A stretch of DNA of 64,000 bases, from assembly GCF_006345805.1 (NCBI RefSeq), contig NC_043013.1, forward strand, positions 38,812,001-38,876,000. Reading direction: 5' to 3'. Of the stretch, positions 52,320 to 52,772 are shown piece after piece; the stretch's first letter is position 1, and each line of letters opens with the position of its first letter. This DNA comes from Octopus sinensis. Lineage: Eukaryota. The position numbers and the translations under genes were made by a program. The notes below the pieces were generated by a model. It searched no databases. It saw only the letters and a list, made by a program, of their open reading frames with translations, and was not told the DNA's origin.

Positions 52320-52772
52320 ATTGACATATAGACATCAATTGATTAGAACATAATGCAATTCTGAACGAATACAATTGTTTCCATGCCCAATTAATTTGAG
52401 AAATTAAATTAAATTAAGTTAAATTAAATTTTCATATCAAATATCGTTAATAGAGTATTTCGTCGGGGAAAGAATTTGATAGAAAAGACCTACATTCCGA
52501 TGTGTTGTTTGACCCTTGATAGACTCAGGTTGTTGAAGCGCACATATTTAAGTCTAACAAGGGTCAAATAGTACATCAGATGGCTCTTCTCTTTTCTATC
52601 AAATTTTTTTCCCTGACGAAATACCCAATTAACGATATTTGATATGCTAATTTAATTCAATTCAATTTAATTTCTCAAATTAATTGGGCATGGAAACAAT
52701 TGTAGGTGAAATTGAGTTTGTTATTGTTCAGAATTGTATAATGTTCTTATAAATTGATGTCTGTATGTCAAT
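52320..52772. repeat. Diverged foldback of about 450 bp with a hammerhead on each arm
   Basis: TTGACATATAGACATCAATT/AATTGATGTCTGTATGTCAA, CCATGCCCAATTAATTTGAGAAATT and its complement, TTTGACCCTTG/CAAGGGTCAAA. Confidence 0.85.
52611..52706 (+). ncRNA. Type I hammerhead ribozyme with long stem II
   Basis: CC-CUGACGA-..CCCAAUUAA...UUAAUUGGG..-GAAA-CAAUUG-UA-GG; the minus-strand partner at 52370-52469 has CCGACGA. Confidence 0.75.

Follow-up and report, generated by a model that had tools for sequence, protein, structure and literature searches.

The locus described here is a 453-nt inverted repeat in the genome of Octopus sinensis, lying at positions 52320-52772 of a 64,000-nucleotide stretch of contig NC_043013.1 (the window, whose coordinates are used throughout), and the span of arm-to-arm homology coincides exactly with these positions. 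Its two arms are separated by a short unpaired centre, and each contains a hammerhead ribozyme motif (Table 1).

Table 1. Features of the inverted repeat, its candidate boundaries and the U4C cores of the window.
Feature	Position	Strand	Remarks
Left arm	52320..52530	-	putative 5'-truncated Penelope 3'-end (pLTR) copy; reads outward
Central spacer	52531..52545	.	15 nt, unpaired; putative fold-back loop
Right arm	52546..52772	+	second copy of the 3' end in the left arm; reads outward
Left core CCGACGA	52460..52466	-	U4C variant
Left stem II region	52382..52459	-	78 nt; base helix with a mismatch
Left GAAA + palindromic stem III + GUA	52370..52381	-	18-nt deletion directly after
Right stem I, 5' strand	52599..52612	+	weak; 6/7 core-adjacent positions pair, one U-U
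Right core CUGACGA	52613..52619	+	U where the left arm has a CpG
Right stem II region	52620..52692	+	73 nt; 9-bp base helix, AT-rich distal part
Right GAAA + 2-bp palindromic stem III (CAAUUG) + GUA	52693..52704	+	predicted cleavage after 52704
Right stem I, 3' strand, and following bases	52705..52722	+	18 nt missing from the left arm
Candidate 7-bp target-site duplication, left copy	52313..52319	+	tentative
Candidate 7-bp target-site duplication, right copy	52869..52875	+	tentative
Candidate one-sided tail, right arm	52773..52868	+	96 nt, tentative
U4C cores	13508, 15865, 44779, 52466, 63607, 63624		

When the arms are aligned with one another, 178 of 202 columns are identical (K2P 0.13), with gaps of 4, 6, 1, 5 and 18 nt. 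The 24 differing columns hold 17 transitions and 7 transversions (16 and 6 in a second alignment), an excess of transitions with p = 2e-4 against a null of 1/3, and three of the five CpG sites of the left arm appear as TpG or CpA in the right arm, with no case of the reverse. Mirror symmetry ends after 227 nt and the flanks beyond are unrelated. These differences have the pattern of real mutation. A preliminary description, made from the letters alone, had reported many substitutions and a larger indel between the arms and had held the architecture to be genomic, and both claims are borne out, the first by the counts above and the second by the transition bias and the multi-base indels. A fold-back chimera of reads or assembly would have to produce 17 transitions against 7 transversions, the 18-nt deletion and a symmetry that stops in unrelated flanks; although sibling foldbacks in the window have 1-nt indels resembling long-read error, and the assembly is noisy in palindromes, we give such an artefact practically no credence.

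Both arms carry CYGACGA, a stem II region of 73 or 78 nt, GAAA, the palindrome CAAUUG and UA, and both motifs point outward from the centre, as had been proposed (hammerhead positions are numbered as in the papers cited). The right motif has the features of a type I hammerhead, with CUGANGA, GAAA and NUH in type I order and a short palindromic stem III; the 9-bp base helix of its stem II is set off from the core, and its stem I has an energy of -3.1 kcal/mol. The left motif has neither a canonical core (CCGA) nor a core-adjacent stem I, where one of seven positions can pair and the only possible helix is an offset one of 6 bp, and the base of its stem II has just 3 contiguous pairs compared with 9 bp on the right. 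In both arms an A.G replaces G10.1-C11.1, a pair that is strongly conserved, though not absolutely, in hammerheads. An 18-nt deletion begins right after the left cleavage triplet and takes out the 3' strand of stem I. Of the earlier statement that both arms keep CYGACGA and GAAA-CAAUUG-UA, the motif strings and the long stem II regions therefore stand, but the left arm has lost stem I and carries U4C, and its ribozyme is predicted to be broken. We considered whether the deletion marks the end of a cleaved RNA. It starts exactly at the cleavage site, yet short repeats flank it, and an ordinary microhomology deletion explains it equally well.

Neither motif folds better than its shuffles (z -0.35 for the right, z -0.28 for the left), and the active fold of the right motif lies 5.3 kcal/mol above the MFE, compared with 2.2-8.2 for the other five motifs. 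The palindromic stem III is computed to form an 8-bp self-duplex of -8.4 kcal/mol, which suits dimer formation. Dimerisation of the two ribozymes in cis was rejected: the motifs lie on opposite strands, so that a single transcript has only one of the ribozymes, alongside the other's complement, and cannot dimerise in cis. The whole locus folds as one hairpin (-231 kcal/mol, z -28), and a read-through transcript is predicted to form this long hairpin and hide the ribozyme, in which case the locus would not be a working double ribozyme.

The hammerhead motifs on the arms are not chance matches. Among 20000 dinucleotide shuffles of the right arm, 4 produced a core that combines a palindromic stem III with a stem II of 4 bp or more. 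In 60 shuffles of the 64-kb window the mean number of palindromic-stem-III cores was 0.03 per window, compared with nine in the real one, where they account for 9 of 13 descriptor matches. CYGANGA lies upstream of 9/9 GAAA-palindrome sites in which the palindrome starts with C (GAAAC-palindrome-GUH) and of 0/7 other palindrome sites, 16 in total. These results bear on the possibility that the locus is a foldback DNA transposon or MITE that has captured a hammerhead, or in which the likeness of the long inverted repeats to one is fortuitous. A short non-coding palindrome without (TA)n ends, Rfam match or link to an ORF could be read in this way, but the rarity of the motif among arm shuffles, the association of CYGANGA with one class of palindrome site, and the lack of a target-site duplication directly flanking both ends make this explanation very unlikely.

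Rfam returned no hammerhead in the 64-kb window, either at the gathering score or at E <= 10, where five unrelated weak matches were at chance level, and it also missed the hammerhead motifs beside the Hydra-type ORFs of the window described below. CCGANGA (U4C) occurs in six of the nine palindromic-stem-III motifs and in four of the five hammerhead families of the window; two foldbacks that appear to be young have it in both arms, and the stem II regions span 19-78 nt. The stem III palindromes of other families in the window are CAUAUG and CGUACG. Cores of the CCGANGA form are invisible to CUGANGA descriptors and to Rfam. All 34 rows of a published motif table start with CUGA, the descriptor there having required a canonical core (PMC8557442), and the one paper found to name U4C treats it solely as a viroid variant whose activity is reduced (PMC3088659). 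No report of U4C hammerheads in Penelope elements was found in the literature searched, outside which most subscription papers lie. Hammerhead variants of Penelope-like elements were reportedly treated by Lunse et al. 2016, an account that may already cover U4C or long-stem-II forms. We regard the U4C variant, the one unexpected feature here, as a lead and not a priority claim; if it cleaves, hammerhead counts in cephalopods are too low. A solo hammerhead at 44765-44857 (+), with a CCGAGGA core, a 46-nt stem II and no inverted partner, has the best stem I in the window (7/7 pairs) and is a good candidate for U4C activity.

Conservation of the ribozyme, implied by the preliminary description, was not upheld. 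Core identity between the arms is 18/19 compared with 160/183 for the rest (Fisher p = 0.31, in a two-sequence and hence weak test), so that the core is not detectably better conserved, and the left stem I is lost. One way to read the canonical core, 9-bp stem II base and 6/7 stem I pairs of the right motif, together with a run of 41 nt identical in both arms (p = 0.07), is that the hairpin or the right ribozyme has been co-opted and kept by selection, for example as a source of small RNA. The p values of the run and the core argue against this, as do the distance of the active fold from the MFE and the lack of a gene nearby, the nearest host ORFs seen being laccases ~17 kb away, and we hold co-option to be highly improbable. 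The first laccase-like ORF (31114-33273) is intronless and is 92% identical to an Octopus vulgaris protein and 77-78% identical to other octopus paralogues; a second, frameshifted copy follows at 34001-35109.

Foldbacks of this kind recur in the window. A census of abutting inverted repeats, with arms required to lie within 150 nt of each other, lists 12, among which those of at least 390 nt are at 13383-15991, 45877-46270, 52320-52772 and 63382-63854, and paired outward hammerhead motifs are present in all four of these largest local foldbacks. We found no convincing homology of 52320-52772 to the other three. In the three siblings the arms differ by at most one transition each and mostly by 1-nt indels (over 1245, 171 and 230 columns), the elements end in (TA)n, and one arm is longer than the other by ~95-180 nt. 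From this near-identity, foldback arms appear to be born identical. The centres of the four are near-symmetric, at about 0, 2, 15 and 90 nt, although this symmetry is partly built into the census, whose limit on arm spacing favours symmetric cases. A probability of independent truncation was set aside, being biased by the choice of foldbacks and not a fair test.

At 13200-15991 the sibling is young and consists of a Hydra-type Penelope 3' end folded back head-to-head, with arms of ~1.25 kb, a 90-nt loop, a one-sided tail of ~155-180 nt, (TA)n ends and CCGAAGA hammerheads at 13508 (-) and 15865 (+); its arms differ almost only by 1-nt indels, which suggests uncorrected read errors. The coding part of this foldback (13.4-16.0 kb) is the end of a Hydra-clade Penelope ORF that comprises the RT thumb and the endonuclease (tblastn against 150 endonuclease relatives, E down to 5e-21); a single copy at 50.1-51.6 kb codes for this part too and likewise matches the relatives. 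In the foldback the central loop continues the ORF of the arm with the longer 3' tail, as snap-back of a cDNA predicts. The elements at 13.4-16.0 kb and 50.1-51.6 kb have no CCHH between the GIY and YIG positions, and around their conserved E and N they carry CxxC and CxH, which are features of the Hydra clade (PMC8557442), and both ORF sequences resemble, by eye, the Hydra alignment of that paper. The Pfam GIY-YIG match is only below the cut-off (E 0.028), and the Hydra call for both elements therefore rests on homologues and the motif pattern; when the 221-aa ORF at 14654 was compared with longer proteins by word index, nothing matched.

Several further elements accompany these. The element at 50110-51550 (-) is a single diverged copy (~84% identity) of the 13-kb Hydra-type family with a CUGAAGA hammerhead at 50431, and 25 of the 38 differences in its endonuclease frame are at third positions. 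The foldback at 45790-46250 is near-perfect and tightly centred, carries CUGAUGA hammerheads at 46034 (-) and 46110 (+), ends in (TA)n and has a tail of ~100 nt on the left. That at 63380-63960 is likewise near-perfect, with CCGAUGA hammerheads at 63607 (-) and 63624 (+), CGUACG as stem III, a tail of ~95 nt on the right and a centre that is a perfect palindrome. Weak Hydra endonuclease profile matches on both strands at 43381-43555 (iE 0.002 and 0.03) are possibly a very old inverted remnant. Smaller foldbacks without hammerheads are present at 16378-16530, 16797-16949, 46977-47095 and 47613-47719, the first two forming a local duplicate that ends in (TA)n and the third resembling a folded SINE-type repeat.

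By analogy with these neighbouring hammerhead foldbacks, including the Hydra-clade element at 13.4-16.0 kb, the element at 52320-52772 is likely to be of Penelope origin, in line with the link drawn earlier. The assignment rests on analogy because we found no coding remnant in or beside the locus (tblastn and profile searches with 150 Hydra-type endonuclease relatives) and no third copy of the arms in the 64-kb window by blastn or nhmmer. Six-frame translation gave only short frames, and no ORF is expected for arms of 210-230 nt. In GTDB genome contigs, a scan for exact 25-nt matches to the arms found 0. Comparison of other Penelope ends with the arms and flanks gave three alignments at p <= 0.05, all of them AT-rich or self-complementary tracts that were not accepted; homology between the left arm and the 46k element (p = 0.005) was rejected, since only AT-rich tracts aligned, out of register. 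The element was not filed under the Hydra clade, having no insertion into (TA)n and no ORF. A bacterial promoter scan was at chance level and is not relevant here.

Neither arm end abuts (TA)n, the nearest runs being ~420 nt to the left and ~135 nt to the right, and no repeat of at least 5 nt directly flanks both arm ends among the best six matches. The candidate 7-bp duplication, which would enclose both arms and a one-sided tail, arose in 7/400 shuffles at the exact boundary and in 27/400 with 3-nt slack, and a 15-nt direct repeat at 52830/52886 straddles the candidate tail end and argues against both tail and duplication. An empty-site search with the flanks in the window yielded nothing but low-complexity matches and a SINE-like repeat (52931-53051). 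The left flank at 51896-52319 is a purine-rich segment between a (TA)n run and the foldback, with no significant match to other elements of the 64-kb window. An assembly gap of 100 N lies at 43753-43852.

In its layout, the locus is an ordinary decayed example of a published type of Penelope insertion. An inverted 5'-truncated copy at the 5' end is common in such insertions (PMC8557442), and head-to-head is the most frequent arrangement, with palindromic junctions explained by self-priming (PMC3846280). Like the inverted 5'-truncated insertions of endonuclease-positive elements, the locus has outward 3' ends, a hammerhead near each and a near-palindromic junction; its arms of ~210-230 nt compare with pLTRs of 181-218 nt in Adineta, its candidate tail of 96 nt (~95-180 nt in the siblings) with a published 30-40 nt, and its candidate 7-bp duplication with a published 8-10 bp (PMC8557442, PMC3846280). 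Unlike the published inverted insertions, it has no ORF left, and its arms are 12% diverged.

Comparison with the Hydra clade, as tabulated and described in PMC8557442, gives a mixed picture. Penelope-13_HM has an inverted 5'-truncated copy with the same hammerhead listed on both strands, as here, and several Hydra motifs have GAA-ACA..TGT-H stem III regions that can be likened to that of 52320-52772. However, all 26 Hydra rows begin with CUGA and have a stem II of at most ~25 nt, compared with 73-78 nt and one CCGA here; the motif of the octopus family Hydra-1_Obim differs, by eye, from the motif at 52320-52772; and unlike the Hydra clade the locus does not end in (TA)n. With the minimal hammerheads of metazoan Penelope-like elements the motifs share type I topology and a short palindromic stem III, and dual minimal hammerheads on opposite strands 100-700 bp apart, as in Schistosoma mansoni, have the layout found here, but the locus is set apart by its much longer stem II, the A.G in place of G10.1-C11.1, and the combination of U4C with a lost stem I in one arm (PMC4209133). 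Non-LTR retrozymes are similarly non-coding, ~200-400 nt long, equipped with a type I hammerhead and thought to derive from pLTRs; assignment to them was rejected, as their ribozymes are head-to-tail on the same strand and those here are head-to-head on opposite strands (PMC7229834; bioRxiv 10.64898/2026.07.22.740005).

We propose, with a probability of about three in four, that the locus arose from one heavily 5'-truncated Penelope-like insertion whose cDNA folded back and primed itself, and that the arms then decayed neutrally. A GIY-YIG endonuclease would have nicked the target and reverse transcription would have started close to the RNA's 3' end, just past the hammerhead. Synthesis would have halted after ~230-330 nt, and the cDNA end would have snapped back over the 15-nt loop and been extended on itself, yielding a second arm that was initially identical to the first; the junction may have left the one-sided tail and the 7-bp duplication. 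Today the two arms are set apart by substitutions, rich in transitions, and by indels, among them the one that abolishes the left stem I. The hammerhead would be a passenger of the pLTR. The geometry, the motifs, the mutation pattern and the near-identity of the sibling arms are observed; a Penelope origin of the family, a single event, snap-back and neutrality are inferred. Some observations sit less easily with this proposal: there is no coding remnant, no third copy and, unlike in the three siblings, no (TA)n, and the central microhomology at the spacer is only ~3 bp and not significant.

A further observation comes from a scan of GTDB contigs with one endonuclease relative, which returned two loci, L001 and L002. 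L001, from another animal, is a head-to-head Hydra-type foldback with arms at 54-1547 and 2269-3787 that are 92% identical; its hammerhead core points outward and is truncated where the contig ends. Of the 86 differences between its arms, 63 fall at third, 14 at first and 9 at second codon positions, and since these differences are mainly synonymous the arms derive from two lineages under selection, a pattern that neutral decay of identical arms does not predict. Either insertion from two templates or mosaic assembly could account for L001. In L002 a canonical hammerhead follows the endonuclease. L001 (1-3787) and L002 both sit in a bacterial genome bin and are animal Penelope DNA of Hydra type, likely contamination.

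One possible explanation for diverged arms is a single insertion from two templates, in which a dimeric RT-endonuclease extends both nicked strands on different RNAs, or switches copy, and the products are joined head-to-head, so that part of the 12% divergence would predate insertion. Self-priming and two-template models are listed as unresolved in PMC8557442. In support of the latter, the anole Poseidon protein, a predicted dimer that needs no ribozyme cleavage for insertion, cleaves and extends both strands in vitro (PMC11167929), the arms of L001 show 63 synonymous versus 22 nonsynonymous codon differences and start ~720 nt apart, and the candidate target-site duplication at 52320-52772 fits a single event. 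However, at 52320-52772 no more than 15 nt separates the starts of the arms, in the three sibling foldbacks the two arms are essentially the same, the differences here are disruptive and not compensatory, and L001, which comes from an assembly of short contigs, may combine several copies as a mosaic. We therefore regard two templates as unlikely, though not negligibly so. Slightly less probable in our view is a broader reading in which a dimeric RT-endonuclease can make Penelope foldbacks from two RNA templates during one insertion, diverged arms record two-template events and not age, octopus families use an overlooked U4C hammerhead with a stem II of 46-78 nt, and the right core is a product of CpG decay.

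Two independent insertions of one family, back to back, would also give a head-to-head pair. According to PMC6765202, Penelope elements insert into existing copies or next to them, and no firm target-site duplication encloses both arms here, but the truncation points of the two insertions would have had to lie no more than 15 nt apart, the family has no third copy in the 64 kb, and no target repeat lies between the arms; we consider this origin very improbable indeed.

Returning to the snap-back proposal, the divergence of the arms at 52320-52772 most likely reflects age. If the arms were born identical, the divergence per arm is ~0.065, a distance that corresponds to ~18 million years in O. 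vulgaris (PMC13282606), which is a borrowed and rough clock here. The age of the arms is not proven, because arms such as those of L001 can differ through divergence of their templates. The preliminary description had called head-to-head hammerhead foldbacks a long-standing product of this genome. Their recurrence holds good, in at least four unrelated families; their age is likely rather than proven, and they are not peculiar to this genome.

Taken alone, the locus matters little, being a decayed case of a known layout. It does show that such palindromes are genomic, and that it is possible to mistake loci of this kind for MITEs or for dimeric ribozymes. Comparison of arm with arm over many foldbacks would be a cheap genomic test between self-priming and two-template insertion. 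Other retroelement remains in the window comprise two long LINE-like elements (2027-5197 and 55902-61085), whose endonuclease- and RT-like frames are interrupted by stops, and RT fragments at 9764-10669 and 20140-23128.
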